From NCBI RefSeq assembly GCF_009834535.1, contig NC_045696.1, positions 83,020,001-83,084,000 of the forward strand: 64,000 nt of DNA, read 5' to 3'. Shown piece by piece: positions 9,668-64,000 of the stretch. The notes beneath the pieces were generated by a model, which saw nothing but the letters and a program-made list of their open reading frames with translations, was not told the DNA's origin and did not search any database. The DNA comes from Camelus ferus. Taxonomy: Eukaryota. The first letter of the stretch is position 1; the number at the start of each line of letters is the position of its first letter. Position numbers and translations under genes: made by a program.

Positions 9668-10540
9668 CAAAGTAAATAAGGAAATAACATAGATAATAGC
9701 AGAAATAAATAAAATAGAAAACAAATAATATAAAATAGTAATTAAGACAACATCTGGATTTTTTAAGTCTTGAGAAATATTTTAAAGAATTGATGAATCT
9801 TTAACTAGAAAGATCAAGGAAAAAGGAATGAATACTCAAATTACTAACGTAAGGACTAAAGCAGAGGAGATTGTTACAGATACTAAAAGGATAAGGGAAT
9901 ATTATGAACAACTTTGGAGTAATAAATTTGACAACTTCAATGAAATGGGCAAAGACTTTTAGGACACAGATTACCAAAACTGACAGAAAGAAAAAAAACT
10001 CACTAGTTCTAAATGAAAGAAATTGAATTTGTAATTAAGTCTCCCCACCCAAAAAATTCCAGACCCAGATAGCATTACTAGTTTATTTATGCCCAAAATA
10101 AGACTTTTTAAGAAAACTGCAGACCAATAACCCTCATAAACATCAACATAAAAGTGTTAAATAAAATTTTAGTGAATCTAATTTAGTAATTTAAAAATGG
10201 CTAATACCACTTTTATTACATTAGGGTTTATTCCAGTAATGCAACTTTGGTTTTCTGTTTGAAAAGCAAACAGTACAATTCAATGTATCAACAGAATAAA
10301 GAGAAAAATGTTATCTTCAAAGTAGATGCAAAAAAAGCATTCGACAAAAATGCCAAAGTCACTAATGCTTAAAAACACCTGAATTAGGAATAGATATGAA
10401 CTTTCTCAACCTGATAAAGAGCTTCTAAGAAAAATCTACAGCTATCACCACACTTCTTGCAGAAAGATTGAAATCTTTCACCTAAGATTGAGAACAATCA
10501 CTATTCAACATTGTACTAAAAGTTCCAGCCAGTTAAGTGA

Positions 10541-10637
10541 GGAAAAAAGAAAGAAAGAGAGAGACAAGAGAGACAGAGAGCAAGGAGAGAAAAAGAAAGG
10601 GAAAGAAAAGAAAAGAAAAGAAAAGAAAGGAAAAGAA

Positions 10638-10693
<56 letters not shown>

Positions 10694-10789
10694 AGAAGAA
10701 GAAGAAATAAATTAAGGAAGGAAGGAAGGAAGGAAGGAAGGAAGAAAGAAAGAAAGAAAAAAAAAGGAAGGAAGAAAGAAAGGAAGGAA

Positions 10790-10823
<34 letters not shown>

Positions 10824-10864
10824 AAAAAAAGGAAGGAAGGAAGAAAGAAAGAAAGGAAGGGAGA
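10541..10864. repeat. Compound polypurine microsatellite (GAAAA/GAAA/GAA/GGAA)n
   Basis: About 320 nt of almost only A and G on the + strand. Confidence 0.95.
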
Positions 10865-14517: not shown

Positions 14518-15407
14518 ATGAGCAAGATGAAGAAGCAGAAAAACCTTTCCCAATTAAAAGAACAAGAGAAATCCCCTGAAAGAAAGATCAACGAAATAGA
14601 CATCGATAGCCTACTAGATCAAGATTTCAAAAAAGGAGTGATCGAATTGCTGAAGGAATTAAAAGAGATAGTGTTTAGAGATATAAAATATGTCAAAAAT
14701 GAAATTGAAGCTATAAAGAAGAGCCAGGTAGAATGGGTAAACTCACTGACAGAGATGAGGAATGATCTAATAGCTGTGCAAAGCCGACTAGATAATGCAG
14801 AGGAACGAATTAGTGATCTAGAAGACAGGGCAATAGAAAGCACCCATTCAGAAGAACTACAAGAGAAGCAAATAAAAAATAATGAAAATAGCATAAGGGA
14901 CCTATGGGATAATATAAAGCGTCCCAATCTTCGCATAATAGGGGTCCCAGAAGGAGAAGAAAGATCAAAGGGGATTGAAAAGGTTTTTGAAGAAATCATG
15001 ACTGAAAACTTCCCAAACTTAAAGAAGGAATCAGATATCCAAGTACAGGAAGCTCAGAGGGTCCCAAATAGACCCACACCAAGACATATCATAATCAAGA
15101 TGGCCAGAGTCAAGGATAAAGAAAGGATTCTAAAGGCAGCAAGAGAAAAGCAAAGAGTAAGTTACAAGGGAACCCCCATAAGGCTCTCAGCTGATTTCTC
15201 TACACAAACACTACAGGCCAGAAGGGAGTGGCAAGATATATTCAAAGCCCTGAATGAAAAAAAAGATGCAGCCTAGGATCCTTTATCCAGCAAGGCTATC
15301 CTTGAGGATAGAAGGAGAAATAAAGAGTTTCACAGACAAAAAAAAAGCTGCAGGAGTTTAGCAACACTAAACCCATGCTAAAAGAAATATTGAAAGGGCT
15401 ATTCTAA
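14518..15407 (+). pseudogene. L1 ORF1p (coiled-coil/RRM/CTD RNA-binding protein), frameshifted in A-tracts
   Basis: Motifs LWDNIKRPNLRIIGVPE and YKGTPIRLSADFS...ARREW. The frame slips at A-runs ~15257-15264 and ~15338-15346. The C-terminus ...KEILKGLF ends at TAA 15405-15407. Confidence 0.9.
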
Positions 15408-15812
15408 ATAGAAAAGCAGCAGGATGCTACAGAAATGAGAAACACACAACTGGAAAGGTGATAACTCATGAATTACAAATAAAGTAAACATGAAATTATA
15501 AAAGAAGACATACAAATTACTGAGAGTGGGAGAGGGAGGCAGGGAAATATAGAATATTTTTTTCTTTCTTTTTTAAATTTTTTTTAACAGTAGGATGGGT
15601 TTGAGATTATGTTACTATCAGTTTAATAAAAACAGTTATAGTAATGGGTTGATAGATTTACAAAAAAGGGTAATCACAAGCCAAAAATTTACAAAGGAGT
15701 CACAAAAATTAAATAAAATCCATGATAATACAAAGGAAAATTACCAAACCACAAAAGGAAGAAGAAAGGAACAAAGAGGATATACCAATTCAACTGCAAA
15801 GATAAGTTCAAA

Positions 15813-18800
15813 ATGGCAATAAACACACATCTATCATTAATTACTGTAAATGTTAATGGACTAAATGCTCCAGTCAAAAGACACAGAGTGGCAGACTGGA
15901 TAATAAAGCAAGAACCTTCAATATGCTGCATACAAGAGACCCACTTTAGGGAGAAGGACACATATAGATTGAGAGTGAAAGGATGGAAAAGGATATTCCA
16001 TGCAAATGGAAAAGCCAAAAAAGCAGGTGTTGCAGTACTGATTTCAGACAAAATAGACTTTAAAACAAAGGCCATAAAGAAAGATAAAGAAGGACATTTT
16101 ATAATGATTAAAGGAGTGATACAAGATGAGGATATTACACTCGTTAATATATATGCACCCAATATAGGAGCACCTAAGTACATACAAGAATTACTAACAG
16201 AGATAAAGGGGGATATTGATGGGAATACAATCATAGTTGGAGATTTTAACACTGCATTAACATCACTAGACAGATCTTCCAGACAGAAAATAAACAAGGC
16301 AACAGAGAAATTAAATACTACAATAGAAAAACTAGATTTGGTGGATATTTTCAGAGCATTACACCCCCCCAAAAATAGGATATACATTCTTTTCAAGTGC
16401 ACATGGAACATTTTCCAGGATCGATCATGTACTTGGGCACAAAAGAAACCTCAACAATTTTAAGAAGATACAAATTATCTCAAGCATCTTTACTGACCAC
16501 AATGCCATGAAACTGGAAATCAACAACAGAGAAGCAAAGGAGAAAAAAAGGAAAGCATGGAGATTAAACAATATGTTATTGAAAAAACAATGGATCAATG
16601 AGGAAATCAAAGCTGAAATTAAAAAATACCTTGAGACAAATGATAATGAAAGCACAACCACTCAAAACCTATGGGACACAGCAAAGGCAGTGCTAAGAGG
16701 GAAGTTTATAGCGATACAGGCCTTCCTCAAAAAAGAAGAACAATCTCAAATAGACAATTTAACCCACCACCTGAATGAATTAGAAAAAGAAGAACAAAAA
16801 GCCCCAAAAAGCAGCAGAAGGAAGGAAATAATAAAGATCAGAGAGGAATTAAATACAATAGAGATTAACAAGACCATAGAAAAAATCAACCAAACCAAAA
16901 GCTGGTTTTTTGAAAAAGTAAATAAAATCGACAGACCTCTGGCCAAACTCACAAAGAAGAAAAAAGAGAGAGCACAAATTAGCAAAATAAGAAAGGAAAA
17001 TGGAGAAATTACAACAAACAAAATAGAAATACAGAATATCATATGAGAATATTATGAAAAACTATATGGAACCAAACTGGATAATCTAGAGGAGATGGAC
17101 AAGTTTCTGGAAACATACTGTCCACCAAAACTGAATCAAGAAGAATCTGAACACTTGAACAATCCGATCACTAGAAAGGAAATAGAAATAGCAATTAAAA
17201 ACCTCCCTACAAATAAAAGTCCAGGACCAGATGGCTTCACCGGGGAATTCTACCAAACATACAAAGAAGAACTCATACTAGTCCTTCTCAAACTCTTCCA
17301 GACGATTGAAAAGGAGGGAATACTCCCAAACTCATTCTATGAAGCCACCATCACCCTGATACCAAAACCAGGCAAAGACACAACAAAAAAAGAGAATTAT
17401 AGGCCAATATCACTGATGAACATAGACGCCAAAATCCTCACCAAAATTTTAGCAAATAGAATCCAACAACACATAAAAAAGATTATACATCATGACCAAG
17501 TGGGGTTCATCCCAGGGACACAAGGCTGGTTCAACATACGCAAATCAATCAGTGTAATACATCACATCAACAAGAGAAAGGACAAAAACCACATGATCAT
17601 CTCAATCGATGCAGAAAAAGCATTTGATAAAATTCAACACCCATTTATGATAAAAACTCTCGCCAAAGTGGGTATAGAGGGAACATATCTCAACATAATA
17701 AAAGCTATATATGACAAACCTACAGCCAGCATAGTACTCAACGGTGAAAAACTCAAAAGCTTCCCACTAAAATCTGGGACAAGACAAGGATGCCCACTAT
17801 CACCACTCCTATTCAACATAGTCCTGGAAGTCCTAGCCACAGCAGTCAGGCAAGAGAAAGAAATAAAAGGGATCCAAATTGGAAAAGAAGAGGTAAAAGT
17901 GTCATTATATGCTGATGACATGTTACTATATATAGAAAACCCTAAAAGGTCCACACAAAAGCTACTAGAGCTGATTGAAGAATTCAGCAAGGTAGCAGGT
18001 TACAAAATTAACGTTCAAAAATCAGTTGCATTTCTTTACACTAACGATAAATCAACAGAAGAAGAAAGTAAAGAAACAATCCCCTTTAAAATAGCACCCA
18101 AAGTAATAAAATATCTGGGAATAAATCTAACCAAGGAGGTGAAAGAATTATACACAGAAAACTATAAACCATTGATGAAGGAAATTAAAGAAGACTTTAA
18201 AAAATGGAAAGATATTCCATGCTCTTGGATTGGAAGAATCAATATTGTTAAAATGGTCACACTGCCCAAGGCAATCTACAGATTTAATGCAATCCCTATC
18301 CAATTACCCAGGACATATTTCATAGAACTAGAAAAAATCATAATAAAATTCATATGGAACCATCAAAGACCTAGAATTGCCAAAGCATTACTGAAGAGAA
18401 AGAAAGAGGCTGGAGGAATAACTCTCCAGACTTCAGACAATACTATAGAGCTACAGTCATCAAGACAGCATGGTATTGGTACCAAAACAGACATATAGAC
18501 CAATGGAACAGAATAGAGAGCCCAGAAATGAACCCACAAACTTTTGGTCAACTCATCTTTGACAAAGGAGGCAAGAATATACATTGGAATAAAGACAGTC
18601 TCTTCAGCCAATGGTGTTGGGAAAACTGGACAGCAGCATGTAAAACAATGAAGCTAGAACACTCCCTTACACCATATACAAAAATCAACTCAAAATGGAT
18701 TAAAGACTTAAACATAAGACAAGATACAATAAACCTCCTAGAGGAAAACATAGGCAAAACATTATCTGACATACATTTCAAAAATTTTCTCCTAGAAGAA

Positions 18801-19610
18801 ACAAAAGCAAGAATAAACAAATGGGACCTAATGAAACTTACAAGCTTCTGCACAGCAAAGGAAACCAGAAATAAAACAAGAAGAAAACCTACGGAATGGG
18901 AGAAAATTTTTGCAAGTGAAACCGACAAAGGCTTGATCTCCAGAATATATAAGCAGCTCATACGACTCAATAAGAAAAAAATAAACAACCCAATCCAAAA
19001 ATGGGCAGAAGACCTAAACAAGCAATTCTCCAAGGAAGACATACAAATGATCAAAAAGCACATGAAAAAATGCTCAATATCACTAATTATCAGAGAAATG
19101 CAAATCAAAACTACAATGAGGTATCACCTCACACCAGTCAGAATGGCCGTCACTCAAAAATCTACAAATGACAAATGCTGGAGAGGCTGTGGAGAAAGGG
19201 GAACCCTCCTACACTGCTGGTGGGAATGCAGTTTGGTGCAGCCACTATGGAAAACAGTGTGGAGATTCCTCAAAAGACTAGGAATAGACTTACCATATGA
19301 CCCAGGAATCCCACTCCTGGGCTTGTATCCAGAAGGAAATCTACTTCAGGATGACACCTGCACCCCAATGTTCATAGCAGCACTATTTACAATAGCCAAA
19401 ACATGGAAACAGCCTAAATGTCCATCAACAGGTGACTGGATAAAGAAGATGTGGTATATTTATACAATGGAATACTACTCAGCCATAAAAACCGACAACA
19501 TAATGCCATTTGCAGCAACATGGATGCTCCTGGAGAATGTCATTCTAAGTGAAGTAAGCCAGAAAGAGAAAGAAAAATACTATATTAGATCACTCATATG
19601 TGGAATCTAA
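15813..19610 (+). pseudogene. L1 ORF2p (APE endonuclease, reverse transcriptase, CCHC domain), disrupted
   Basis: NVNGLN, QETH and GDFN endonuclease motifs; QGCPLSP and YADD (17908-17919); [18 protein letters not shown]. Lesions: frameshift in a C/A run at ~16364-16376, TGA at 17044-17046, 1-nt frameshift at ~18425. Confidence 0.95.
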
Positions 19611-22411
19611 AAAACAAAAACAAAAACAAACAAACAAAAACAAAGCGTAAATAAAGGACAGAAATAGACTCACAGACAGAGAATACAGGCTTGTGGTTAC
19701 CAGGGGGGTGGAGGGTGGGAAGGGATAGACTGGGATTTCAAAATTGTAGAATAGACTACACTGTATAGCACAGGGAAATATACACAAAATGTTACGATAA
19801 CTCACAGAGGAAAAAATGTGACAATGAGTGTGTATATGTCCATGAATAACTGAAAAATTGTGCTGAACACTGGAATTTGACACAATATTGTAAAATGATT
19901 ATAAATCAATAAAAAATGTTAAAAAAAAATTTCCACTTACCCAGAAATCATTTAGCAATTGACTCATCCTTCAAACTGGTTCCTGTGGCCTTGTTTTTCT
20001 CCTCCTAATATGTGGATGATGTCGCCAGACTCTTGTCTTGGTTAGTAATACGCACTATCAGCTCTTATTTCTCCAGTAGTCTTATTTATAAGAATCCAGG
20101 GAAATACAAAAATAAATATTCATCAAGAGAAAGTCAGTAATGTTACTGATGACAAGTACAGTCCATGCACTGGTCTGGGGGAGTCCAGAGCACGGTGACT
20201 ACACCAGCAGTTTGTGAATGAGGCAGACTTGGGTTTGCACTCTGATTTTCTGAAGCCTGCGCCTTCATATTTCGAACCAGGTTCTAATATATTCCTTCTA
20301 GTGTCTTGTGAGGATTCACCCGAGAGAGAAAGAATGTAAAGCACTGACCGTGGTTCCTGGTACACTGTTCCATATACAGTAGCTTTGATTATCATTATGG
20401 GCATATTAGGAATAAGGACTCCTGCCCTTGAATGCCCATGGACAACTCCAGAAATGGACAATTCTTAACCTTTGCACCTGTTTTCTTCTCTCTAAATTGG
20501 GGAAGAATACCTTTCTTATCTATCTGATGAGCTCATCTAAAGGATTAAAGGTGAAGGAATTCTGACAATTGCAATGGGCTGAGCAAACATGTGCCCCCTT
20601 ACTGTGTTTGTGGTAGGACCAAGGGTGAGAGCAAGGAAAAAGTAAAATTTTAAAATACCTTTGTCTTTTAATTGGGTGAGAGAACATTTTGGAGAAGAGA
20701 AATTTATAATTATGTAATTGATTGAAAAGTTGAGTGGGATAAAGAAGGTGAAAAACATGATCCTAATAAAATCAGAATTGAAAATCATGGATTATCATGA
20801 AAGTGTAAACAAACTAGGAGAAAATTGGACTCCAGGAAATCATTGCTTAAGACTGCTAGGAAGTGGTTCTTTATTTAGCCTACTCGAGCACACACGCACA
20901 CACACACACACACACACTCGATTCCACGTGATTAAGCAGCTTTGCTCTTGTCATTTTCAACATGCCACTGCTTCCCAGAACTTGGGGAGGTTTTACGGGA
21001 TAAGGCTCCCTGGCTCTCAAGTGTCCCTCCTTGCATAACTCTGGTTTTTGAAGAGGTGCACCAGAGGCAAAGTGCACACTGTGTCATTTCCAGGATTTAT
21101 GGGGAACCAAATACTTGAGTCAGAAGTTGCCAAGTACACATTTCATTTTGATTTAAAAGACAGTTAATGTCTCAAATTGAAAAGAACACAAGTGATTATT
21201 AATAAAATAGGTAACAGGAACTAACAACCGAAAAGCCGAGCTCTTTCATATGCAGCAGATGACGCTGATTCGCCGTGAGGTGGCTAAAGCAGGCTCCTAA
21301 TAAACTGAGAATCAGGTTTCTGAATGGTGGTATTCTGTGACTGAGCTTTGGATCTTCTCTGATGATGAAGAGGCAAATGGGGCATTTTGATATGTTGCTG
21401 GAAAGATCATTTTCCCTAGCTGTTCTGTAAAGCTCTGTTCATTCCCCTGACTTCACTGCCACAATCACTTGGCAAGAAGCTACACTGGCTCACAAATGGA
21501 TGCTTAGAGAGGCATTTAAATTGTCCAGACTTAGTTGCAGCGTGGAGAAAATGAAGGGGCGCATGGTTACTGTAAATGTGGACCTTTCCATTGAATGGTG
21601 ATATATAAGACTGATGACTAATAAACACACCCTACACGGGAAACATTTGAGTGATGACATCTTTTTTCTTTCACTCTTTTAACCAGCCACGATGGCTGGG
21701 ATTTTACTTAAGGAATATATGGGAAACAGACTAAGCCCCAAGGCAGATCACCCTGGCAGCTGTAGAAAGAGAAGGGTGTACTTTCCCATGTATGTTATCT
21801 GCATTTTTCTATCATTTTAACATCTGCCAGTGAGATCAGAGTGATTCCCTGCATGCTGCTCATTGAATGCCCAAGTTTGGTAGACAACTGTGGCTTCCTG
21901 TCTTAAGAGAAAAAAAGAGACAGGCTACTAGTCTGTGCGGCCTTTGAGCACTACCGCGAGCCCTAGCCACACTGCTTAGCTTTTTGGACAAATGTCCTCA
22001 CAAAGGTTCCAAGTAATCTTGGGCACAATTCATTGTTCAGCCATCTTTTCCCCCATGTCCCCAATAAGGAAGATACTTGTACTTCCTTGATCCTCAGGAG
22101 ATTCATCACGATCAAGTGACAGGATGATTGTAATTTTGCAAAACAAAGCAAAATGTAAAATGTCCTATTATTGGCTAATGCTACTTTGAAACAAAGTAAG
22201 GAGTTTATTATACCTTCTCCATGTGATTTATTATGTCCAGTTACCTAATTTTTGCCTGCAGAGATGCCTTTCTGGCTGCAAAATTAGCCTGGTTTGTCAT
22301 TAGACCCTGTCATGTCACTGAGCATGTTCCTAGTCTCTTATATGCTCTGTTTTCTCCATGTTGCTGAGATTTTCCATGATTTTCTATATTAGTACATGTA
22401 GACCTGCCTCA

Positions 22412-48475: not shown

Positions 48476-48627
48476 TTATTGAGGGTTGTCCAAACCATCC
48501 TCTGCACAGGTTGGTCCCATTCTCCTCGCAGGGAAAGTGCAGATCCCGTTGAGGGGGTTACAGCCAGCTGTGTGGAGACACTGGCACTTCAAAGAGCAGT
48601 TAGGTCCATACTGGCCTGACCTGCATT
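48476..48627 (-). pseudogene. EGF-like exon E (last EGF repeat): ECRSGQYGPNCSLKCQCLHTAGCNPLNGICTFPARRMGPTCAEDGLDNPQ*
   Basis: Acceptor tttcacctcacag|AA. It ends either at a weak donor G|gtttgg (48496) or at TAA 48476-48478. CxC has become CTF. A minus-strand AATAAA lies at 48195-48200. Confidence 0.85.
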
Positions 48628-50927
48628 CTGTGAGGTGAAAAGTCAAAATAAAACCAATTGAAATATGCTTTTCTATCACACAGTCTTTTTACTACTATTT
48701 CTTGGAATTCAGTAAGATAATGATAGGCTTGTAAAGAATTCTGGTTAACCATGTCGTATCTTTTCCCCATGCAAGAATGTTATATAAGAAAAGTAAGGAC
48801 TTTAATGGAAAACAGGAGGAGGCTGGGGAGTGCCAAGGAAGTTAGTGACAAAGTTGAAAAAAGAAAACAGGACAGCAACTTATATTTTTCCAGTGTCTTT
48901 TCAGAATTAGATTATTCAATAGAGCTGATAGCAGTCCATTGTGAGGGACACGGAGCAAATGGATTAGGTGTCTTAAGGTCCAGAAAAGGCGATACTTACC
49001 CAGAGTACACAATTATAGGAAATTCGTCCTTAAGTTAAAAACACAATTATTTGTGCTTATGTTATTGAAAATGACATGACTTTAAATTCAACTCTTTCAT
49101 CTGTTAAACTGTGTCAAAAGGACCATGGATCCCTCTGTGTGAAATCCTGCTATATGTACTAAAGGGAGGTAACTATCTTTAAGTTGAATTGCATTGTGGT
49201 TGCAATCGGGAGAGAAATGAAGAAAGGGGATTAGAAAGTGTCAGCTTTATCAAAATAACAAAACGTGGACTGAAAGGGGTCCCCCCAGACATCACATCCC
49301 AGCCTGCGTCTCTGGTCTCAGTCTGATATCCAGCAGAGAATTAGCAGAGAATTAGCAGGTTCTGTTTCTGAAGGATTGTGAGGTCAGGAAGAAAGCCAAG
49401 CCCAACCCATGGAAACAGAAAATGGTTTCATATTTCCCAGGCAGTCAGGCAAGACTGGGAAATAACTCAATTTACCAACGTTTAAGGACCAGAGAAACTT
49501 AACTTTGCAAGAACAACAGTCACCTAGCTCTATACCATTTTTCAAAATGGGCTCCTAATACATTATCTTAATTGGTTCTAACGAATTCCTGTGAGGTAGG
49601 AGAGGCAGTGAGGTAAGCTCTCATTCTAGAAAGAGATAGACTAAGGTTTGATGTGTCTTAAGGGACCTTCTCAAATCCCTGATAAATGACAGAGCTGGAT
49701 TTCTAAATTCTCACCTAGTGCTCAGTCCTCATTCTGCCCTACAATCTGGAAAGACAAAAGATGTCAAGCATATGCAGAAGAAAGCCCAGATCAGAAAGTG
49801 GAAGGCTGGAAAGTGAAAACTTCAGAGACACCAATACAAATATAAAGATACAGGTGGTAGAGCAAAGTCCGAATCTGTGAGCAAAAGTTTGCTAAGCATT
49901 TCTTTATTGCCTCAAAATTCTCTTTGCTAGGTTAGAGATCCACCCTAAATATTCCATGAGCAGTTGGATATTTATTCGATTTTATTTTTCCTTCTTGGAT
50001 AAGGAAGGTAGGATAGGGTGTGGACTAGCTCTCATTTTAATTAACTTGTTAGATTTTAAATACGAGATCAAGGGAAACATACCAATTCTGCAATTTACCC
50101 TTTTTACATAGGTGCAATGTGAGCAAACAGTAATTTAATCCCTTCTAAATCAAGGAACACCATGTAGGTAAAAGAAGCTGTGAAGGTGATGCAAAAACTG
50201 CTCTGAAATGAATCTGTTCTTTAAACCATCAAACTTCATGGGGAAAAAAAAAAGCCTGTGTCATTTCAAATTTAACCTAACACATCTCCCTCTGCCCAGT
50301 GTGTGGGATGATTACTTAGTTTGGTGGTGAGACCTAGTTTTCTTGCTTGAAACAGTTATGAGTCAGGATCTCTCCTGAGGAGTTCAGAATCTGATTTTAA
50401 TTTTTAAAAATACCACATTTTCATGTTAATAACGATGTGTATTTAAGACATCTGTTTGAATGTCTGCAAATGTTAATTTACCAACGGGGTGGGGAAGTAA
50501 TCCAATAAAAAGCTGCTACATTCTTTTATGAATTAATATTATAGCTGTTTAATAGGGTCTTTACCAGAGTTCAAATTAAAATGAGGTCTTTTATCTTTAT
50601 AGTGCCTGCATAGACACAGCTGTTCACAGTTAATATCACAGATGAACTAGGCCTAATTGAAAATAAAAATGCAAATAAAAGATCCTGCAGCACGTCTGTG
50701 TAGCCGTGGGTACCCCAAAGAGCTCACAACAAGAGAGGCCTTGAGGTGCCCACTGAGAATGGACACGTTAATACATAGGATCCAAGACCACATGACAATT
50801 TACTTGTGGATGAAGAAGACAGTGTGATAGGAAATTTAGTCCACAGAAATTCCATCGAGTGAGGCTTTCATTTCCAGCCTGTCCATAAGCTCTTCTGGTT
50901 TACTGCTTTGTTTTAAGCCACTGCTAA

Positions 50928-51105
50928 ATGCTGTCCAATAGAACTTTCTGCAATGACGAAAATCTTCTCCCCTGACCTATTCAATACTGTAGCCACTAGC
51001 CATGTGTGGCCACTGAGCACTTGAAATGTCATGTGTGACTAAGGAGAGGAATTCGAAATGGACCTAAATTTAAATTAAACAGCACCCGTGGTTAATGGAC
51101 AATGC
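50928..51105. mobile_element. MER3-like hAT/Charlie DNA transposon fragment
   Basis: ctgtccaatagaactttctgcaatga...gtagccactagccatgtgtggc...gagcacttgaaatgt...tggacaa. Confidence 0.75.
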
Positions 51106-51149
51106 AGGCAGACAACCAAAAGGGATTCCTAATCCTTTCTTTCCCTTGA

Positions 51150-51385
51150 GAGGCAGTAGAGTGGGGCTGTTCAAAGTCTAGCTCTGGATCCAGACTGCTT
51201 GTTTCAGATCCCCAATCTCCCACTTAACTAGCTGTGTAATCTTGAGCAAGTTACTTAACCTGTTTTGAGGCTTCAGCTCCCAGCTTCCTCATCTATAAAA
51301 TGGGAATGGTGATAACAGTAAAGGTGCTATACTATAGTATAAATAAAATGCCTGCCATGTAACATGCATTCAATAAACATGAGTG
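51150..51385 (+). mobile_element. MIR SINE
   Basis: Core actagctgtgtaatcttgagcaagttacttaacc...ctcatctataaaatggga. Other MIRs at ~2760-2880(-), ~8010-8220(+), ~27790-28090(-), ~39280-39510(+), ~51930-52130(+) and ~60850-61010(-). Confidence 0.85.
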
Positions 51386-52883
51386 GTTTTCTCTAAGATT
51401 TAATGAAGCCACACATACTATAAGCACTCTGCCTTTAGTGAGCACTTTACTGGTGCCATGTGTCATGCGGCTTCATCAAAATGTCATGTGGATGTTTATT
51501 CTGAAAGATTTAGTTTATTTGACAAAGTTCAGGTATTCTGTCTATCATGACTCTATGAAGAATGCTGAGTAGGGAAGCAAGAATCACCTCCACAAAAATT
51601 TGCTGAAGGCTATCATGTGCTAGACTTTATTCTAAGCATTTTTGATAAAAGACAGACTCAAGCAGCTTGCAGTGCAGTGAGACACAAGGATTAGAGACTT
51701 AAATGAAGAGTCTCTGCAGAAAAGAAATGTCGGTATCTATAAGCTCCTGAACTGGAAGATCCTAAAGGATTCAGAGTCAATATCGAAAACCCCTTGGCCT
51801 TATTCTGTAAGTCTACAAAAAAAGGGAAGACGTAGGGATAGGAAGGGATACAAGACTCTAATGGGCCATTGGAGGCTCCTTATTCTGGACCACATACAGA
51901 TACTTACATCACACAAACGGTATGGTCAACCAATAGCATCACCCAAGATACGAAACCAGACTACTTTGGATCTCATCTTGGCTCTGCCACTTTCTTCCTC
52001 TCTGTGCCTCAGTCCCTTTATCTGTCAAACAGGAATAGGAACAGCAACACCCCCACAGGGCTGTGCTAAGGATGAAATCAACACAAGTGAAGTGTTTGGG
52101 GTGATGCCTGGCATTCAAAGAAAGTAGCCATCATTGCTCTTTCTCAGAAGGAAGGTGGGGTGTGGGAGATGGTGCTGCACAAACAGCCCTCTCCTGTAGC
52201 CTGGACGGTTACCACGACTTTCTCAGCGTTATTGAAATCCCAGGTTGCGTAATCATAGATTTGTACTGCAAATGATCTTAGAAATACATAGCCTCAACCC
52301 TTCTTTTTGGCGGATGAGAAAAGTAAATTTTGAGGTTAAAATCTCTATTTTGGTCATATCTGTGGCAGGGTCAGTCCTTCAGGGCTATTTCGAATTTAAT
52401 ATAAAACCTTTTCACCTAGTAAGCATGCATTAAGTTTAATAGCAAGGGATAAGTCAATGATTCATTCAATCTACTTTCTCCTTTTTTTTTTAAAAGCTTC
52501 TTCCTTGAAGAATTTGAACTTTACATTTGAGGGTATTCTGTGAGTGGAAAGAAAAAGTATGAATTTCAATTCCCAAAGAATAGTTGAGAACTGGGTTCTT
52601 AAGAGCACCACCTGGACCGAACCTTAATTGCCTTCATTCTAGTTATTTCTCCGAATCGCAGTTTTTAACTGCATCATTTTGGGGTCTGTCTTCTGCCAGC
52701 TGTGGTGCTGGTTTGGGGTGCCAACAATGGAACAACTACCTACCCTGATTAATCAGACTAAGGCAAGGTGACCAGCAGTGGTAGGGCGATGTTCATCGAG
52801 TAACATTTTCAGTATGGAAATGTCTGTATATCTCCAAATATCCCATGAGTCAGGGGGACATCCTGAGGTGCTTTGGTTCATAC

Positions 52884-53011
52884 CAACATCACATCTGGCT
52901 CCAGTCCTCCAGGTGAGCAGAGGCATTTTCCAGTTACTGGGTGGCAGGAGCTTTCTCTGTCACTGTCACAAAGTTGGTGGCAATTGTCTCCAAACAGTCC
53001 AGGTGAACACT
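52884..53011 (-). pseudogene. EGF-like exon D: ECSPGLFGDNCHQLCDSDRESSCHPVTGKCLCSPG/RTGARCDV (frameshifted)
   Basis: Acceptor tcctctttcctgggtag|AG, donor TTG|gtatga, 128 nt (1 short of 129). The terminal GxxC motif is in a shifted frame after CCT GG, and CDC has become CDS. Confidence 0.85.
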
Positions 53012-54213
53012 CTACCCAGGAAAGAGGAATGCTGAAAATTTAACCCCTTGAGTTTTCACTGATGCATCTAAATTGAGACGAGAGATAAAATTGCCACAAG
53101 ACTGAGCCCCAAAGAGCAAAGTGAGATGATAATGTGAGATGGATTAGTCAGAAGAAGAGAGGAAAGTTTTGGAATTCTCAGAAAGAAACTTCATTTGATA
53201 CATGGTTTTACATGCAGCCCTTAAAATTGATTTCCTTCAAGACTGGTTTGTCCCTTTTAACCATATGTAAGCTTTTTGAAGATAGGAATTTAAGGAATGA
53301 GATTGAGTCTACTAGCGAAGTGTATTACTTTCAACATTTTTCCTTAAAATGTTATTTATTTATTTACTGTCTATTTCTCCAGAAGAAGTAAGCTTCACTA
53401 AGTTCCCAGAATTTAACACAGTAACAGGCACATAATAGGGGCATGTCATATAGAGCTACTAAACAATAAATGAGTGGATTAAAGGCTGGACAAGAGACGC
53501 TTTATGTAAAGTTCTAGTGACATATGAAGACATTGTATGGGACTAACATATAGTTCCTTTTTAAAGGTAAGAACTTTGGTTCACACAAAGTCAAATGACC
53601 ACCATCATTGTATCATCATTATCACTCTTATGGTTGGTGTAACCATATGCACAGGAGCGAACAGTATAGACTGAAATGAGACTTGGAGTTTTTCACTGAG
53701 AGCTAAGCAATTTGGCATTGCTTTGAAAGGGTCAGGGATTCATCATATTTTATTTCAAACTGAGTGGCCCAAATTCTCACCTCTATACCTCCATCCACAT
53801 TCATGGCTGCCGTATGATGAATGCCTAATTCACATATTTAGATTTGTTTTGTAAAGCTCTTGGGTCTGTTTCAGTACCACTGAACTCAGTGCATGCCATT
53901 CTTTTAAAAGCATTTAATGAAAGATTTCTCATTCAGAGCAGAATCTTTGTCCATTGAAGACTAACTGCTTTAGTGGTGTTTTGAGACATTAAATAGTTTC
54001 ATTTAGGGGAGAATAAAAAGTTTCACCAACTAGCGATAAAATCAGAACTCGTTATATCAACCATAGAGTGAATTCCTGTCAGTGTCCGAGTCAGAGGCTT
54101 AGGTGATTATTCCATGTTTCAGATTTGGGTGTACATGTTTGCCCTCAGATGGAAGGATCTCACAGTCACACAGGGTTCTCACATTCACATGCTTAAAAAC
54201 ACTCTGGCTATAC

Positions 54214-54342
54214 CTTTTTCACACTGGCTGCCATGGAAACCAGCTAGGCAAATGCACTGTCCACTTGCTGCATCACAATTGGCTCCATTTCTGCAGTCTC
54301 AGATGTGGGCACAGTTCAAACCATAAAATCCAGGAAGGCAGG
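54214..54342 (-). pseudogene. EGF-like exon C: xCLPGFYGLNCAHI*DCRNGANCDAASGQCICLAGFHGSQCEK
   Basis: Acceptor ttccactttctag|CC, donor AAG|gtatag, 129 nt. In-frame TGA at 54299-54301 replaces a conserved Cys. Not in the ORF track; read manually. Confidence 0.9.
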
Positions 54343-56376
54343 CTAGAAAGTGGAAATGTCAAAATGCTATTTCAGCTCTAAGAATAAATAAGGGGAAAAT
54401 TAAAGGATATGTTCTAGGTCATTTGTTTCCCAGGACCAAGAAGGAGATGGGAGCAGAGAATTGGAAGGCAAGGGAAAAATTTCATGGAGAGGCATGTTGC
54501 TAGTATTTCAGTCATACAGATAAGTGACTATTTAAGTGCCATTGCCCACAATGAGTCTAGAAAGGTCCAGAAGAAAATTTAAAATATCTTCAAGTAGATC
54601 AAATTTATTTGCTATGATGTGCTATAGTCTGACAAACACTTCACCAAAACTGTCTAATAACCTAAACACCTAAAAGAACCATGTTTTCAAACTTCATATG
54701 CAGGCGAAATTTAGCGAGAATTTAAAACTCTTTAAATAAATAAGATAGTGTCTGGGGGAGGTGATTCATACAGCTGTTGATATTTGAAATCCTACAAGTG
54801 GATGACAGAAGCGGGTGTGATGGGGGCAGGTAGGGGGAGAAAGAAGGAGAAAGGGAAAAGAAAACAGAGAAAATATGATGCATACACAGTAGGTTCACAT
54901 CTTATGAAGCAGTTACATTTTAAAGTCAGTGAAATTTAATCTTTGAAAAATTTCCTAAATAGCCCATAGAGTACAACAGAGAACTAGTTCTTAGTAAGTC
55001 CAGTGTAACCTGTCTTTCCTACACAGTTGGAGAAGATCAATACTTTTGTGGCTGAACATCAGAAGTGATTGGCTTAGATTTAGAGACCATATGGTCCAAG
55101 CAAATGCATTTCTTCAAATGCTCAAATTGTCCTCTGCCCAGGGGATGCTTGCCTGAGGGAGGTACATGAGAGCTACATTTGACTGCAGACCAAGGATTCC
55201 CATTTCCTACCTTGAGTTTTCTCTGGGGTTGTGCTCACCACCCACCAACGGGACTAGAAGGGGCACACAGTTTCCTCACCCTTCAATTATCCTCTCTCTC
55301 TTGCTCTCTTTTTCTCTCTCTGTCCCCCAATCCCCCTTCCCCAGCACCTAGAGTTGGATTTGCCTAGGCTTCACGTGGGTGACAGTTCTTCAGCATGAAT
55401 GGAGCTACTCAGGACAGATCCAACATTCGGAAAAACTCACAGAGAGTGGAAGAAGGAAGCCAAACCAAAACCAGATAAGGAATGAATGATTTTATATAAT
55501 ATACACTCTTCCATTTTCTAATCTTATTTACTCTTACAAAATGAATAATAAAGGAAGATCCAGTGCAGGGTTTCTTCTGTTTGTTCTTGTACAATAGTTG
55601 TTGACAATACATTAAAAAGTCATATCTCCTTTATCTCCCTTATTTTAATTGTATATAAAACTGAGCTCATAAAGGTTGGCTTGCTTGACTTTTTCATTTG
55701 TCTAAATAATTCTCCCAGGTTGCTTGGCTTAGAACCTTGGAGTTAATTTTGATTCCTACATCATCCTCAGCTACGTGTCCAAATCAATTGTCAAATACAG
55801 TCAATTGTTTTTCCAAAATATTCTTCTGTTCATTCATTTCCATTTTGATCCCAGGATAGATTTTTGAAATCCCAGACTATCACTGCAGTTTCCTACATGG
55901 ACACTACTAGTAGCTCCTTTTCCTCATGATTAATAATATCCCCACGTTACATGTTTATTTCACCAGAGTGATGTCCCTTGTCTACTCAAAATCTTCCTTG
56001 ATATTCCACTGCATGTAGGATAAAATTTATGGACGTTGAGTAGACATTTTTCCTTCTTTTGTATCTCTTAGTCTAATTTTGAAAACAAAACAAACAAAAA
56101 CTATAAGACTTTGCTTCTACGTTCTCTAACACAAGAAACATCAGTGTGGTTGGCAAGAGATCTAACCCTCGAAAGGCTTAGTAGGATTTGACAGTTGACA
56201 ACATCTAAAACTTAAATTAGAGCTTTGAAATATGTTGCAAAAATATATATTAAAATCTTAGCAGTTTATCTAACTTGATATAATGGGAATGTATTACTTT
56301 TATGATTTAAAAAAACAGTTTTCAAAGCTTAAAACTTAACAGCACCATAACATGCACATTCATCTTCTTGGTTTCC

Positions 56377-56505
56377 CATGTTCACAGTTTCTTCCATAAT
56401 ATCCTGGGAGGCACTCACAGCTTCCAGAAATCCTGTTGCAAATCCCATTGTTCTGACATGTGCAATTAAAATGGCAGCCTGGACCATAATAACCAGGAAA
56501 ACATT
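56377..56505 (-). pseudogene. EGF-like exon B: ECFPGYYGPGCHFNCTCQNNGICNRISGSCECLPGYYGRNCEH
   Basis: Acceptor tcctttttcag|AA, 129 nt, open frame with all 8 Cys. The expected donor position reads G|ggaaac instead of G|gt. Confidence 0.9.
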
Positions 56506-56574
56506 CTGAAAAAGGACCCACCCAAGCAATAATTGAGTTTGTAATGAGTTTGAAGACAGAAAAAAACACTAGAA

Positions 56575-58670
56575 TTAATTAAAAAAAAAAAGGCAGACAA
56601 ATCATTAGCCAACAAAAGCAAGGTAAAAAAAGAGAAGGCACCAATATACCCAATTTTTTAAAAATATGGAATGATTATCAAAAGGAATAAATATAAAAGT
56701 ATAATACAAATAAATATAAAAATGTAAATGAAATGGAAAAGTTACAGAAGACAATTTACCAAAATGGTCCTAATTTGAGGCAGAAAACCTCAACAGGCTA
56801 ATTGTAATAAAAAAAACAATGGAGCAAATAGTAAAATAGTCCAATTAAAAAAAAATCCCAGCAATCCTAGGCTTCAAGGAGAAATTCTGTGACCTTTACA
56901 GTTCAGATAATCACCTTACTGCTTACACTGTTCCAGAGCATTGACAAGGAAAGAAAATTTCAAATACATTTTATTAAGTGAGTATAACATCAATTCCAAA
57001 GCCTGAAAAAATGTGTGAAAAACTACATCTCAATTTTACTTATGGATTATCAATGCCACATTTATAAAAAACATAAGTACACTGAAATCAACAGCATAAT
57101 TTTTAGTAATATAGCACAACTAAGTAGTATTTATTCTAAGAATGTAAGGTCTTGCAATAATATAAAAATTCATTGATAAATCCATCATATTTACCGGTCT
57201 AAAGAGAAAAATCATATTATTAATTTCATAAATGTAGAAGATACATTTGAACAATAATGTCATTAAAAATTGAGTAAAAGCATTGAATAAATTGAAAAAT
57301 TAATAGCCATATCATTAAAATCCAGCATTTTACTTATTGGAGGAAAAAAGCTTGAATAGATGGAGAAATAGACCATATTTATTCTTGAATAAGATGAGCT
57401 AATATCATAAATATACTAATTCTTCCTAAAGGAGTAAACACAGAGGACAACAAAACAGTAAAAATCAAAAAACAAACAAACAAAAAAACCTGACTTTTTT
57501 TTTGCACCTAGACAATCTGATTATAAATTTCATTTGGGACAAATAAATAAGAATAGTACTAGGGAAACCCCTGAAAAAGAAGAGTAGTGAAAGGTGGCTA
57601 GCCCTGTCAGTTTCAAATATATATAATAAAAGACTTCATATTAAAAACAGTATTGCATTTGCACAGAAATAGACAGATCAATAGAACAGAGCATCCAGAA
57701 CCATACTCAACTGCATGTAAATGTTTAGTATCTGACGCATCCTGCATCTCAAATCAGTGGGGAACACAGACTTGTAAAAGCTGCATTATGATAACTGAAA
57801 AGCCATGCAAGGGGAAAATGGATCTATTCCTCACACCATATGCCAGGAAAAATATTTAAAATTGATCAGAGAATTGAATGTCAAAAATGGTATCATACAA
57901 GTGTTAAAAGAAAACATGGTTGAATTCCTCTAAAGCCTGAGAATGGGGAATACATTCCTAATTATAACTCAAAAAATAGAGAGAAGAAAGATATATTTTA
58001 TTACAAAAAAGAAAAAATCTTCTGAATCATGCAGAATCTGAAATCCAAGATGCTCTTAATGAAGAACATGTTCTAGGATGGTTCACACCTTTAAGTGTTA
58101 TCTTCTCCCTGGTGGAATCCGAGCTGAATCCACGATGGGCTAGAACCAATAGAATGTGGTGGCAGTGATATTACATCACTTCCCTATCTTAGGAAGGCCT
58201 GACAACTTCTGTTTTAAGAGGCCAGCTGTCATGTAAGAAACCCAATTATCCAGTTGGAGAAATAAAGCCATGCAGAAATGGTAATGGTCAAGATGTTGGG
58301 GTAGAAAGACCCTGAGTTCAACTCTTTCCATAGGCACACCAAAATTACAACTATTTACAGTGTAAATAGACAATTAATAGAAAAAGAAATGCAAAAAGTC
58401 CTTACCCATTAAAGATGCTGAACATTATTTATAATAATAAAAATGAAAATTAGAACTCCACTAATACATTTCTCACCCAAATTTTGATAACATACTCTTT
58501 TGATAACCCTGCAGGGAAACAGGCATTCTATGTAAAGCTTATGAGGCTGCAATATGGTACAACCCCACATGGAAGAGAATTTGTCAATCAGTTGCAAAAT
58601 TACATTTGTCTTTACCTATGACTCAGTAACTCTTGTATGTTTGAAAAGTTCCATAATAAAAAGTTTAAAT
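56575..58670 (+). mobile_element. Old L1M ORF2/3' fragments in the intron between exons A and B
   Basis: Decayed ORF2 motifs (aatgaaatggaaaa, cagatcaatagaacag, ctcacaccatatgcca). Confidence 0.7.
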
Positions 58671-59938
58671 GATAGAGTCAAAAGTTAAAATGTCCCACAT
58701 CCCAAAATGATAGAGAATTATCCAACTTTAAAGTTAAAAACAAAACCAATGTGAACACATCTATTCCAAACACACTGCTATTCCTCTCATTTAGTAGTCC
58801 CAAATGTCACAAAATTGATAGGAGCTGGCTCCCATGAATTAGGGAGGGTATCCAAACTTGAAAAAAATTCCATGAAAAAATGGTCTTAAATGTTAGATTT
58901 AGAAGAGCTGTCATTTCAAAGTGTCATCATCCTGACTTTCAGGCGGGAAAATCATGGAAAGGTTGTGAATTAACAGAAGCACAGAGTATGGTATCAGCGG
59001 AGCGAGGCTTGGCATACGGGGCCGTCCGCTCCCCCTGCAAGGGGCTTTCATCTGTGCCGACTTCCGTGACAGTCAGATTAATGGTGAAGGACGGGGGTAA
59101 TCACACCCGTGTGGGAGCAGGTCAGGGCGGCAAGTCTGAAGAGCCAGAGCCCCCAGAGTTGGAACCATCTAGGTAGAAGTTCACTGTGGATTATTTTTCA
59201 CTCAGGGTGCCCCAAGTTTAGGCCCCAACACGGTGTTCTCACCCATGCTCTCCCTCACTACCCTTTCTGGCTTCTTTGGCCAAAACACAACACTATCTCC
59301 TGCAATAGTGTGCCCTAATTAGGATGCACGCTTTCCAGTGTTGTACAAAATAATCTATCATGGTTCCAAATGGAAGCAGTAGAACAGCTCTCAGTATTTA
59401 TCTTTATCTATTCTTTATCACCTTAAACCTTTATAATACACATATGAATGGAGAAACATAGGAATGTCACTTTTAATAAAAATACATTTATGACAGAGTG
59501 TGATTAAATTTTTCCCAAGGAGGTGGAGTTTGGAGACCTCTGCTCCCAGAGTCTTCCTCTTCACCCTCTGCAACTGGGCACAAGCTCCCAGTGAACTGGC
59601 TCTGCCCAAGGCCCTGCATCCTCCACCTTGCCCTCCTCAAGCATTGGCTGGAGGGGGAGTGGGACTGAGCTCTCAAAGGAGCTGTTTCATATTAATACTA
59701 TTCCAATTACTTAAGAGTTTTAAGAGTTTTCATGTGGTATTCTGGTAACAAGGTAACAAAATCAATCAATCAAGTAGTAACATAACACTATTTTTACTGG
59801 AAATGCAATCATAGTTACAAACAACTTGTGTAGACTTATTGGAAAATAGCCTCTTTACAGGCCTCTTCTATATTTTATCAACCATCAGCAGTCTGCTGTA
59901 GATCTGTACTGAATGAAAGAAGGTAGTCATCAACTTAC

Positions 59939-60050
59939 CTCTGTCACAATCATCTCCTGTCCATCCAGGGGCACAGTTGCAGCTTCCATCCACAGGACTG
60001 CAAAGGCCACCAGTTTTACAAGTACATTTTAACTTACAACTGGGGGCATC
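59939..60050 (-). pseudogene. EGF-like exon A: (G)CPQ[deletion]CKLKCTCKTGGLCSPVDGSCNCAPGWTGDDCDR
   Basis: Acceptor tttttactacag|GA, donor AG|gtaagt. It is 112 nt versus 129 nt for its neighbours. The phase-1 frame reads xGA TGC CCC CAG TTG TAA (stop at 60034-60036). Confidence 0.85.
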
Positions 60051-61599
60051 CTGTAGTAAAAATAAAAAATAACAAGCTGCATAAAAATGTCCCATAAGCA
60101 AACGTTTTTCTCTGTTTCAGGGACAGTAATCATTTCTACATAGCAAAAACATTGTTTTTAATGTTCAAATTAAAACAAATTAACCCATCAGCTGTATCCT
60201 TCACGTGGTAGCACGCCACTGTCATTCATTCATGTTTTCATTCACTCCTGTAATATTGACCGAACTCATAACTATGTACTCTAGGAACTGGAGATGCCCT
60301 ATAGAGAAACAGAGGTCAGTCCCAGATTGGCAGTGGGAGATTTTATGCATTTAATCTTATAATCAATAAAGAAGACAGATGAGTCATTTGCTTCTTCATG
60401 TCTCTGTGCTGTAATCTGAAAAACATTTCAGCACAGAGTAGTGGGTGACACAAACAAAAATGCACTAGCAAGAGGAGCTAAGCTACAGGTGAGAGAAGCT
60501 GACCAGACATAATGGAAACTGAGCCTTCATTGTCAGGGGGGAATAACTGAATGACAGGACGTACCAATGGGATAGTAACCATTACTCACATTTACTTGGT
60601 TTTGCCATGAAGAATATGGGCCCGATATAGCCAGCTAATATGATTTTTTTTTCAGGCAAACTCAAAATCCATATTTTATATGAAATCATCCAATATTTGA
60701 AAGCTGGCAACTAATTAAAATTGTTTTATGGCACTGTGGAAGCCAAAATTATGTCAGCCAAACCAAACACATTTGCGGCTAGATTTGGCCAAAGGCCTGC
60801 CATTTATACCCTCCAGTTTATAGTATTTTTACATAATGATATTTTCCACATGAATTATCTCATTTAATGCTTACACATATTTCTCTGATGTGGGTAACAG
60901 TATTCTTATTTTACACTTGAGAAAACTGAAGCTGAGGAACTGAAGTCTTGCTCAGGCTTAAGCAGCCAGTAAAGATAACCAAGATTCAAATCTAGAACTT
61001 CTGACTTCTCATCACCTATTCTTTCTATCTGAGCTAGCAGGAGAGACATTAGAGAAAGAAACACAATTTAGCTTGCCCCAGAGCATTTGGTTATAATAGA
61101 ACAGAGCACATACTTGGATTTAATTTGCATGACGCTTTCTTTCTTGTCTTTAACTAAATAGGTGTGCTTAACTTTAGTATCAAGTGAAGGAAGCATTTTG
61201 AGTTCGTTTAGCTAAAAAAATACAGTATGGCTGTACAGTTAATGGCTGAATCGTCATCGTATGTGCTTTTGGTTTTTTGCCTTTAAGGCAAATTAAACAG
61301 GATCAATGATACTAAGTCTTATACCATTAAAATAAAATTTCTTTGTCTCTCCTTCACCCTTCTAAAACAGCCTAACCAGCCAAGAGGCCTGTTCATTTTC
61401 CAACCTGAATGCGGAAATGCATTGTTGAAGCTGGTGAATCTATGAAAGTATGGGACTTCAAGATAAGACTTTGGACAAAAAAACATAACTGGAAAAGTGA
61501 GGAGCACTTAGAAATGTTTCTTTCCACAGGTCTAAGTCTCAGAAAAAATATTCACACAGAATTGTGCAAATAACTTTACTGCTTTCTGAAAGTTATTGT

Positions 61600-61704
61600 T
61601 GGGATGGGGGTGGGTAATAGCTCAGTGGGAGAGCACATGGTTATCATGCAGGAGGTCCTGGGTTCAATCCCCGGTGCCTCCATTAAAAAAAAAAAAAACT
61701 TTAA
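61600..61704 (+). mobile_element. tRNA-derived SINE (camelid Vic-1-like, short form)
   Basis: A-box TAGCTCAGTGG, B-box GGTTCAATCC, poly(A), TSD AAAGTTATTGT at 61589-61599 and 61705-61715. Confidence 0.88.
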
Positions 61705-62039
61705 AAAGTTATTGTAATTACACGTTAAATATTTCAAACAGTATATAAAGGTATATTATGGAAAAAAGTATTCCATCCTTGTGCCCTGGTCTTCCAGTGT
61801 TCCTTCAAAAAAAAAAAAATCATTGTCATCAGCTTTTTTCTGTATCATAGGCCTCACTTCTTTCAAAGAGAATTAATTACGCTGACCACTTGATTTAAAA
61901 TTTCAACCCACCTGGCACTCTCAAGCCCCATCTCATGTTCTTTTTTTCCCTCTTACCATAGATTTTATTCCCTGTTAACATACACATAATTGACTTATTA
62001 ATTATGAAAACGGGCACTGTTGGATATTGATGCCGTGAC

Positions 62040-63790
62040 CGCTGCGTTATTTTTGCTCCATGTGCTTGGTGTGTCTGTCCCCATTTATTTAGCTTCGTTT
62101 TATTCTGGACGCTTTTTTTCTAGGCTAAGGTGGGTGTTATTTCTCTCTTGCTGTTTTCAAGATTTTTTTCTTTTTCAGAATTCCAAAGTTTGATGTTGAT
62201 ATGTCTTCTGTGGATTTCTTTCGGTTGATCCTGTTCGGCATTCACACAGATTTTTCGATTTGTAGGTTTACAGGTTTTTTTGGTCATCTTTAGGACATTT
62301 TTAGCCGTCATCCCCTTGACTCCTTTTTCAGTCCTGCCCCCTTTCATCTCTACCTGGACTCTGATGACACAAATGCTCGAGCTCTTCTTCAGTCCTACAG
62401 ACCCCCAAGCTCTGTTCTTCTTCTTATTTCTTTCGTCATTTTCATTTCCCTCTCTGCTGTTTCGATTCGGTAATATTTGTTTAATCTTTGAGTTCACTGA
62501 TGTGTTCCTCTGTCCTCTCCATTCTGCTGTTAAGCCCAAACATTGAGTTTTGTTTAAAGTTTTGGTTTTCTATTTTCCAGTTCTAAAATTTCCACTTGGT
62601 CCTCCTGTATGTCTCTTATTCTTTGCTGAACCTTCCTATTTAACAAAAAAATTGCTTTAGGTATGTTCAGAGCTGCTCACTGAATCGTTTGTATGATGGC
62701 TGCTTTAAAACTCTTATCAATTAGTTTTAACATCAGTGTCATCTGAGTGTTGGTGTTTGTTGATTATTTTTTTCTTATTCAAGTTGGAATTTTCCTGGTT
62801 GTTGACAGAGTGAATAATTTTGGAATGGACCTGGACATTTTGAATATTATGGTATGAGACTCTGGATCTTGTTTAAATCTTCTGTTTTAGCAAGTCTCTT
62901 ATGATAGTACACTGGCAAGGAAAGAGGTCCATCTGTTAGAGGGTGAAGTCCAAGTTCCCCACACTGTCTCCAAGGGGGGAGCAAGGATAAGTGTGTTTCG
63001 TCTCTGCTGGGCCAGGGCCCGAGCCCAGGCTCCCAACGAGGCCTCTGCTGACACCCACCTGAGGGGTAGAAGGGCCGCCTTATGGCTGCCACTCGACTTC
63101 CACGGACGCTGGTGGCCTTGCTGCTGCTTGGTGGCTGTGAGAGTCCTGACTGTCCCCACGACCTCCTCGGACACCACCCTAGCATGGAGCGGTGTGGGCT
63201 CCCTACCATCTGGTAGAGGCAGAGGCTCATGCCTTCCACGTGGTTTCCACTGTCGCTGCCGTGGTGGCGGGTACATGCCCACCTGGCAGGGATGGAAGTC
63301 CCAGCCCCACCAGGCCTGCTCTCACTCCATCCTGGTGCAGGGTGCGGGGGCCTCATACACCCCAGCGGCATCTGAAGGGTAGAATCCTCACTTGGCCTTT
63401 GCTAATGGAGCTGGGGTGGAGGAAATGGTTTTAGTCTGTTTGCTGGGAATAGACCCGTTATTGTCTAAGAGTTTCCTGTCTTGCTTGGCTGCCCTTTTCC
63501 TGATATTTTAACTAGAGAAAGCAAGCTGACCTTGGACCTTTTTCTGTCTGCGCCTATTGACCCTTCTGGGTTAGAGCCTCTCCAGCAACCAGTCCAGCGT
63601 ATGAGACAAGAAAGGAAACTCAGGGAACTCACCATCATGCTGACCCTAGGTCCCCAGAATTGTAGCAGTTCTGCTGTCTTCTCTCCACACTTCAGAGTTC
63701 CGTATGTTTTCTATATAGTGTCTAGAATTTTTACTGTGTTTAGAGAGAGGAATAGGAAAATGGGTGTGTACTCCAGTTCTTCTAAGTGCA
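62040..63790 (-). mobile_element. Old L1M 5'UTR/ORF1 fragment
   Basis: Minus ORF 62120-62539 resembles ORF1p (ICVIRVQ...QPKEIHRRHINIKLWNSEKEKNLENSKRE), followed by a GC-richer 5'UTR remnant. Confidence 0.75.
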
Positions 63791-64000
63791 AGTCTTATAA
63801 TTTTATGTAATCTTTAGACAGTGCATTAATATAATGAATTTATTTGTTTAGTATATGTTGACTCACCAGTATGAGTGGTGATGGAATTAATATGCTTCTG
63901 CTTTCTCCAAATTTTTCTCATTCCTCTTTTCCCCTGATTTTACTGGGCTGTATTTTTTATTCTTACATTCTCAATGACAGCATTCTGAATTCCAGCATTT

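Follow-up and report, generated by a model that had tools for sequence, protein, structure and literature searches.

Is the run of epidermal growth factor (EGF)-like exons on the minus strand of a stretch of the wild camel genome the end of a once much longer EGFEM1 gene and, if so, how and when did it decay? The stretch, hereafter the window, comprises 64,000 nucleotides of Camelus ferus (contig NC_045696.1, positions 83,020,001 to 83,084,000). Mouse Egfem1 (Q8C088, 590 amino acids) and human EGFEM1P/C3orf50 at 3q26 are the same gene as the window exons, but mouse and other short EGFEM1 models end long before them, and the reference protein therefore lacks the tail. We read the exons and their lesions from the assembly sequence of the window, and the history in other species from predicted proteins. 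The best explanation as a whole, and in our judgment probably the correct one, is that the window holds the 3′ end of EGFEM1, whose tail decayed piecemeal, for the most part once the lineage had parted from the ruminants.

The five exons, A to E in transcript order, are listed in Table 1. A typical EGF unit comprises 129 nucleotides and eight cysteines, and internal exons are phase-1 cassettes. A sequence-only reading had described five such exons on the minus strand, and they are present with all the changes it named. An AG acceptor is found at all five, while the donors read GT at A, C and D and GG at B. Both the acceptor and the GTAAGT donor of exon A are intact, and its deletion shifts the frame, giving a TAA at codon 6 if the exon is entered in phase 1; read-through of B meets a stop six codons into the intron. 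The statement that every exon carries a different lesion stands as far as the changes themselves go, but Cys31>Phe in exon E is a missense change only, which leaves hard lesions in four of the five exons. Similarly, a symmetric phase-1 structure holds for A to D and not for E. Because yak EGFEM1 and the mammalian model P0014 have their C-terminal end at the position of its stop, E is, judging from the sequence, in all likelihood no symmetric internal exon but the last coding one, and its stop is conserved. An off-frame bat model is compatible with this stop and lacks the GT needed for a 132-nucleotide internal E.

These exons are not chance matches, because with fish EGFEM1 repeats as the query they score 44.7–66.2 bits, whereas 30 hexamer-shuffled windows reach at most 28.9. 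Pfam assigns EGF-type families to all five peptides at E<0.01, three of which (A, B and C) reach the curated cut-off. With disabling lesions in place and introns kept, the locus fits a unitary pseudogene, for the tail only. A processed pseudogene or a transduced exon is ruled out by five exons spread across 11.6 kb with yak-orthologous introns. No further EGFEM1 exons were found in the window, either downstream (1–48400) or upstream (60100–64000); tail repeats 1–3 are likewise absent from the window, and the 5′ part of the gene, where an EMI domain and calcium-binding EGF repeats would be expected, lies beyond base 64000. The first AATAAA after the terminal stop may be the old polyadenylation signal.

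Table 1. Positions of the EGFEM1 exons and associated features in the window.
Feature	Positions	Strand	Remarks
Intron piece upstream of exon A	61972-61913	-	65% over 23 columns to yak EGFEM1 model, E 4.6e-05
Exon A, fifth-last EGF repeat of EGFEM1	60050-59939	-	112 nt; 17-nt deletion near 5′ end
Exon B, EGF repeat	56505-56377	-	129 nt, open, 8/8 Cys; donor GT changed to GG
Exon C, EGF repeat	54342-54214	-	129 nt; Cys14 changed to TGA
Exon D, EGF repeat	53011-52884	-	128 nt; 1-nt deletion near 3′ end; Cys16>Ser
Conserved non-coding element, ~135 bp, D-E intron	50545-50680		better conserved than exons
Exon E, last EGF repeat, probable terminal coding exon	48627-48476	-	Cys31>Phe; stop TAA 48478-48476
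First AATAAA after terminal stop	48200-48195	-	~275 nt past stop

Which gene do the exons belong to? The search with exon B, which found five proteins among ten candidates, gave its best match, at 86%, to a 1317-residue Myotis lucifugus model (G1PLR7). Exons A to E have colinear best matches to residues 1104–1317 of this bat protein, its last five repeats, with identities of 24/36 for A, 36/42 for B, 38/41 for C and 29/41 for D; E matches yak and sheep at 32/42 each, and A matches vole EGFEM1 at 22/36. Over the five repeats together, 158 of 202 residues are identical to the bat model and 151 of 202 to P0014. Proteins that carry the name EGFEM1 contain exon A (vole) and exon E with the same C terminus (yak XP_005908235.1), and named EGFEM1 proteins were recovered among the matches listed by a wider search (best 120 of 192) and by a search with the vole N terminus (best 120 of 1465). 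MEGF6-type proteins are 50–53% identical to the window repeats (102/202 for a pangolin model, 66/124 for bat MEGF6), which speaks against MEGF6 beside the 158/202 of the bat model from the EGFEM1 clade. MEGF10, MEGF11 and PEAR1 reach 40–61% in their best single-exon matches; these are scattered rather than colinear, and exon E ends in a stop, not in a transmembrane segment, which speaks against these genes as well. Two intron pieces (61972–61913 and 50646–50566) match text spliced into the yak EGFEM1 model, and because even intron pieces match, the locus should be EGFEM1 itself and not a paralogue.

In a tree of N-terminal regions (25 of 30 chosen rows, unrooted; the five rows without the anchor were dropped, among them all three invertebrates), seven named EGFEM1 rows separate from six named MEGF6 rows at 100/97. 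Long models from bat, owl (1483 residues), quail and Gambusia (1770 residues), as well as P0014, fall on the EGFEM1 side. The NCBI model of Myotis lucifugus (P0013) and the 1483-residue owl UniRef model (P0022) are named MEGF6 and group with EGFEM1; long EGFEM1 forms are probably often mislabeled. The colinear matches, the intron matches and this tree thus bear out the earlier assignment to an EGFEM1-like paralogue of MEGF6, and the sequence comparisons support an orthologue of EGFEM1 rather than of MEGF6, MEGF10 or MEGF11.

How long was the ancestral protein? Models of the EGFEM1 clade with the same last repeats measure 1321–1770 residues in fish and 1483 in owl, as expected from the earlier proposal of an ancestor of MEGF6 length, which these protein models support. 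By a strict pattern, fish and owl models have 10–14 intact eight-cysteine repeats and mammalian models 0–8, and in these mammalian models the middle of the EGF array is either lacking or garbled. In the EGFEM1 models of mouse, rat, deer mouse, mole-rat, manatee and two marsupials, the sequence stops directly behind one shared early repeat. Five of these models, from manatee, the two marsupials, mole-rat and deer mouse (P0145, P0149, P0224, P0266 and P0274), end three to four residues past it with near-identical C-terminal ends. A short form may thus go back to the ancestor of therians; alternatively, the predictors may have read through the same donor.

The tail itself has fared differently from species to species. 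Across A to E, the window keeps 37 of 40 cysteines, the bat and P0014 all 40, and the mammalian model P0025 28 of 39. Vole isoforms splice to the tail, with the first four tail repeats in frame and with all their cysteines; B and C are read off-frame, and the off-frame text is compatible with 8/8 cysteines in B and, for as much of C as it covers, with 5/5. In both vole species (P0132 and P0122), the same short insert after exon A shifts B and C out of frame, and despite this insert in the models the EGF frame in B and C looks preserved. Among ruminants, yak exon B, also off-frame in its model, is compatible with 8/8 cysteines, yak E has 8/8, and the Cys31 of exon E is intact in yak and sheep. 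Sheep exon B has a Cys>Tyr change of its own and an apparent frame change, at positions other than those in the window. The yak model and the sheep model each splice onward from the end of B, and the lost donor is therefore not shared with these two. The sequence-only reading had looked to shared lesions for a date; as far as lesions can be compared, the two in question, the donor loss in B and Cys>Phe in E, are absent from both models. The bison model ends after tail repeat 2. In cetacean models, decay extends over the whole length. The earlier claim of a tail loss in this lineage is therefore borne out by the lesions in four of the five exons, but not as one simple loss: bat and P0014 are intact at their cysteines, vole splices to the tail, and ruminants have other lesions. 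Because both comparable lesions are absent from yak and sheep, and sheep has lesions of its own, we favor from these sequences a decay that was separate between lineages and fairly recent.

The rate of amino-acid change is consistent with this. At 202 sites, the residue changed only in the window 28 times, only in the bat 6 times and only in P0014 13 times, and the window-only excess has a p of 2e-4 against the bat and of 0.03 against P0014, which at the amino-acid level points to relaxed selection on the tail. The loss of three in 40 cysteines equals about 0.03 substitutions per site, or 12–24 million years at mammalian rates, with a wide interval of about 2.5–75 million years. It is fewer than expected at 0.10–0.15 neutral substitutions per site (P 0.03 to 0.0003). 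On balance, these comparisons favor a loss of the tail after the camelid-ruminant split, with which an earlier relaxation of selection is compatible.

We propose the following history. EGFEM1 would be a paralogue of MEGF6 that had MEGF6 length in the bony-vertebrate ancestor. With one phase-1 cassette per eight-cysteine repeat, repeats could be skipped or lost singly with the frame unbroken, as illustrated by the vole isoforms with their free skipping of EGF cassettes, and mammals would have shed the array piecemeal. In early placental mammals, the N-terminal half may have been spliced to an eight-repeat tail, as the vole, bat and bovid models suggest. Selection on the tail would then have lapsed in the camel lineage, and ordinary mutation would have followed, mostly after the ruminant split: the 17-nucleotide deletion, the lost donor, the nonsense change, the 1-nucleotide deletion and the cysteine losses. 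The tail would no longer give its protein, and its DNA would remain with at least one conserved non-coding element. The data directly support the lesions, the orthology, the long fish and bird forms, the faster amino-acid change and the two lesions not shared with ruminants; the timing, the independence of the loss and the role of the element we infer. The mechanism is an ordinary one, and the partial gene loss is real and well supported and apparently undescribed.

Several points weigh against this history. Neither the yak nor the sheep model includes C, D or the 5′ half of A; therefore, the lesions in these three exons may be shared. Among 16 comparable window-specific residue changes, five are shared with ruminants, eight are not and three are ambiguous; the shared ones could mean that relaxation began earlier. 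The rate test assumes that P0014 is not the sister of the bat, and at 0.05 substitutions per site the cysteine test is not significant (P 0.3–0.4). In the model that NCBI gives for the same bat, B and E are off-frame, and splicing may therefore not keep the bat tail intact either. Metagenome contigs gave no mammalian orthologue (196 pattern matches, four loci, 32–42% identity); lesion sharing is therefore read from predicted proteins only. As to identity, the N-terminal tree is unrooted and lacks 5 of its 30 rows, fish EGFEM1 is identical to the window at 98 of 202 residues and thus no closer than MEGF6, and a tail tree does not resolve the deep paralogy. Its deep branches, with support of 52–89, were not used, and the MEGF6 label of its minnow row is an assumption.

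The strongest competitor is one old loss, on the cetartiodactyl stem or earlier, to which camelid-, sheep- and yak-specific lesions were added later. It would account for the absence of C, D and the first half of A from the yak and sheep models alike, for the bison model that stops after tail repeat 2 and the decay throughout cetacean models, for the residue changes common with ruminants (5/16), and it fits within the wide cysteine-based interval. We nevertheless consider it improbable, given that yak retains all eight cysteines in E and is compatible with all eight in B, that only 3 of 40 cysteines are lost in the window, and that both comparable lesions are not shared. Could the gene still make protein, with A to D skipped as dead cassettes and E as the terminal exon? 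In silico, 14 of the 16 skipping combinations stop early, and only E alone and B plus E reach the normal stop; because B is without a donor, the latter is unusable, and a direct splice into E is the remaining use of the region. Such a splice is open to the stop conserved in yak and P0014, an AATAAA follows, and vole models skip EGF cassettes freely, but E has lost a structural cysteine and has several other private changes, and we give this possibility little credence.

Less likely still is that the lesions, in part or altogether, stem from errors of the assembly or from alleles private to the animal sequenced: five lesions of four kinds, together with the excess of amino-acid change (28 against 6), fit decay and not sequencing error. 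Word shares of 0.96–0.98 in 14 of the 24 listed runs were rejected as evidence here, the three lesions there touching only about 2.3% of the words. Least probable of all, and largely refuted, is an origin of the exons from MEGF6, MEGF10, MEGF11 or PEAR1, or from a duplicate of one of these genes. The MEGF6 names of the NCBI bat model and the UniRef owl model would speak for it, as would the finding that none of the expected neighbors GOLIM4, MIR551B and MECOM occurs in the window. Both mislabeled models cluster with named EGFEM1, however, and the identities given above are too low or not colinear. Piecemeal decay of the EGFEM1 tail thus remains the preferred explanation.

What of the DNA between the dead exons? 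In the D-E intron, the piece at 50646–50566, conceptually translated, agrees with part of the yak model at 27 of 27 residues. Against yak, it has no forced nucleotide difference in 81 nucleotides, compared with 27 in 306 for the exons (Fisher p 0.002), a post hoc comparison, the element having been noticed because it is conserved; from P0014 it differs by at least 5 of 81 nucleotides. AG and GT border an 88-nucleotide cryptic exon within it (50652–50565), which the yak and P0014 models take as a false exon. A coding exon is ruled out here, TAG being the second codon and conservation crossing both would-be splice sites. A search for open reading frames with the element gave five matches, two of them without a matched stretch; among the other three, two fit the element and one is an unrelated repeat. 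The two that fit match 50680–50545 across both would-be splice sites and not in the flanks, and suggest a distant source for these frames. A structured RNA is ruled out by folding z values of 0.04 and 0.06; no Rfam family was found for the element, the only match being a chance snoRNA match of 24.6 bits against a cut-off of 60, and its octamer motif, found 7 times where 5.4 are expected, does not exceed chance. This sequence is most simply read as a conserved non-coding element, and it may be regarded as a candidate enhancer of the MECOM domain.

Tail and element would correspond in human to the gap between the annotated EGFEM1P and MECOM. Excerpts of PMC4396373 call human EGFEM1P a pseudogene and place it about 250 kb from MECOM; the same excerpts tie myeloproliferative risk to variants in the MECOM region and locate rs2201862 downstream of both genes, about 153 kb from MECOM and 99 kb from EGFEM1P. 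Part of PMC7985498 names C3orf50 as a neighbor of MECOM. According to PMC8740935, a variant that regulates EVI1 is located some 100 kb downstream of this gene, within the EVI1 domain; the domain boundary given there, chr3:168.6 Mb, may leave the element outside. We hold only as a tentative idea, rather doubtful as it stands, that mammals are taking the MEGF6-length EGFEM1 apart in repeated and independent rounds, with EGF cassettes lost singly, and that the dead tail is kept as host of MECOM-domain enhancers such as this element. If so, the human counterpart would lie between EGFEM1P and MECOM, where EVI1-regulating trait variants map, and the loss of EGFEM1 would be invisible to gene-loss screens anchored on the human pseudogene or the mouse short form.

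Elsewhere in the window, a near full-length L1 occupies about 12800–19900 on the plus strand, with a GC-rich 5′ part (GC 0.525 at 12001–14000), a piece of ORF1 at 14428–15276 and ORF2 in several frame-shifted pieces at 15729–19610. A tRNA-derived short interspersed element at about 61601–61698 has a poly-A tail and, by eye, an 11-nucleotide target-site duplication (61589–61599 and 61705–61715); we take it to resemble the camelid Vic-1 family. It thus fits a camelid host, just as the residues that the window has in common with yak and sheep fit a cetartiodactyl. An assembly gap of 100 N spans 9019–9118, and a long purine-rich simple repeat lies at 10516–10950.

Finally, we would like to compare the EGFEM1 tail with known systems. 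The parallel to the last five repeats of MEGF6 drawn in the sequence-only reading is confirmed by the same architecture and repeat order. MEGF6 differs by its identity of only about 50% and its separate N-terminal clade, and a mammalian MEGF6-type model keeps 40 of 40 cysteines. In unitary pseudogenes and repeated mammalian losses (for example GBA3, PON1, CHIA), genes likewise decay in place with their exon-intron layout kept and with lineage-specific lesions; the loss in EGFEM1 differs in being modular, with single exons of the repeat array going one after another, and a shorter protein that still works may remain. Another likeness is to the bystander genes of genomic regulatory blocks. These are large genes beside developmental transcription factors; EGFEM1 is likewise, in human, a neighbor of MECOM, a regulator of blood and limb, and one of its introns holds an element that is kept better than the exons and may act as an enhancer.

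In the literature, we found no paper linking EGFEM1P to a genomic regulatory block or treating EGFEM1 together with MEGF6, and nothing on the ancestral length of EGFEM1, its tail or its loss across mammals, with supplementary gene-loss tables and subscription papers outside the search; the main text of PMC2864566 does not mention EGFEM1. EGFEM1P has also been studied as a long non-coding RNA (excerpts of PMC9650597), and a pig copy of EGFEM1 is annotated (excerpts of PMC11344843). EGFEM1, its human pseudogene and the pig copy are thus known, and the long ancestral form, the broken tail and the intronic element are apparently new.

No phenotype is tied to the loss of the tail, but the element offers a concrete enhancer candidate near MECOM/EVI1. 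Screens anchored on human or mouse would probably miss the loss of the EGFEM1 tail, which lends itself well to studying how genes decay module by module in arrays of phase-1 exons. The 590-residue mouse protein is then the remnant of a much longer protein, whose missing tail can still be read, and dated, in other mammals.

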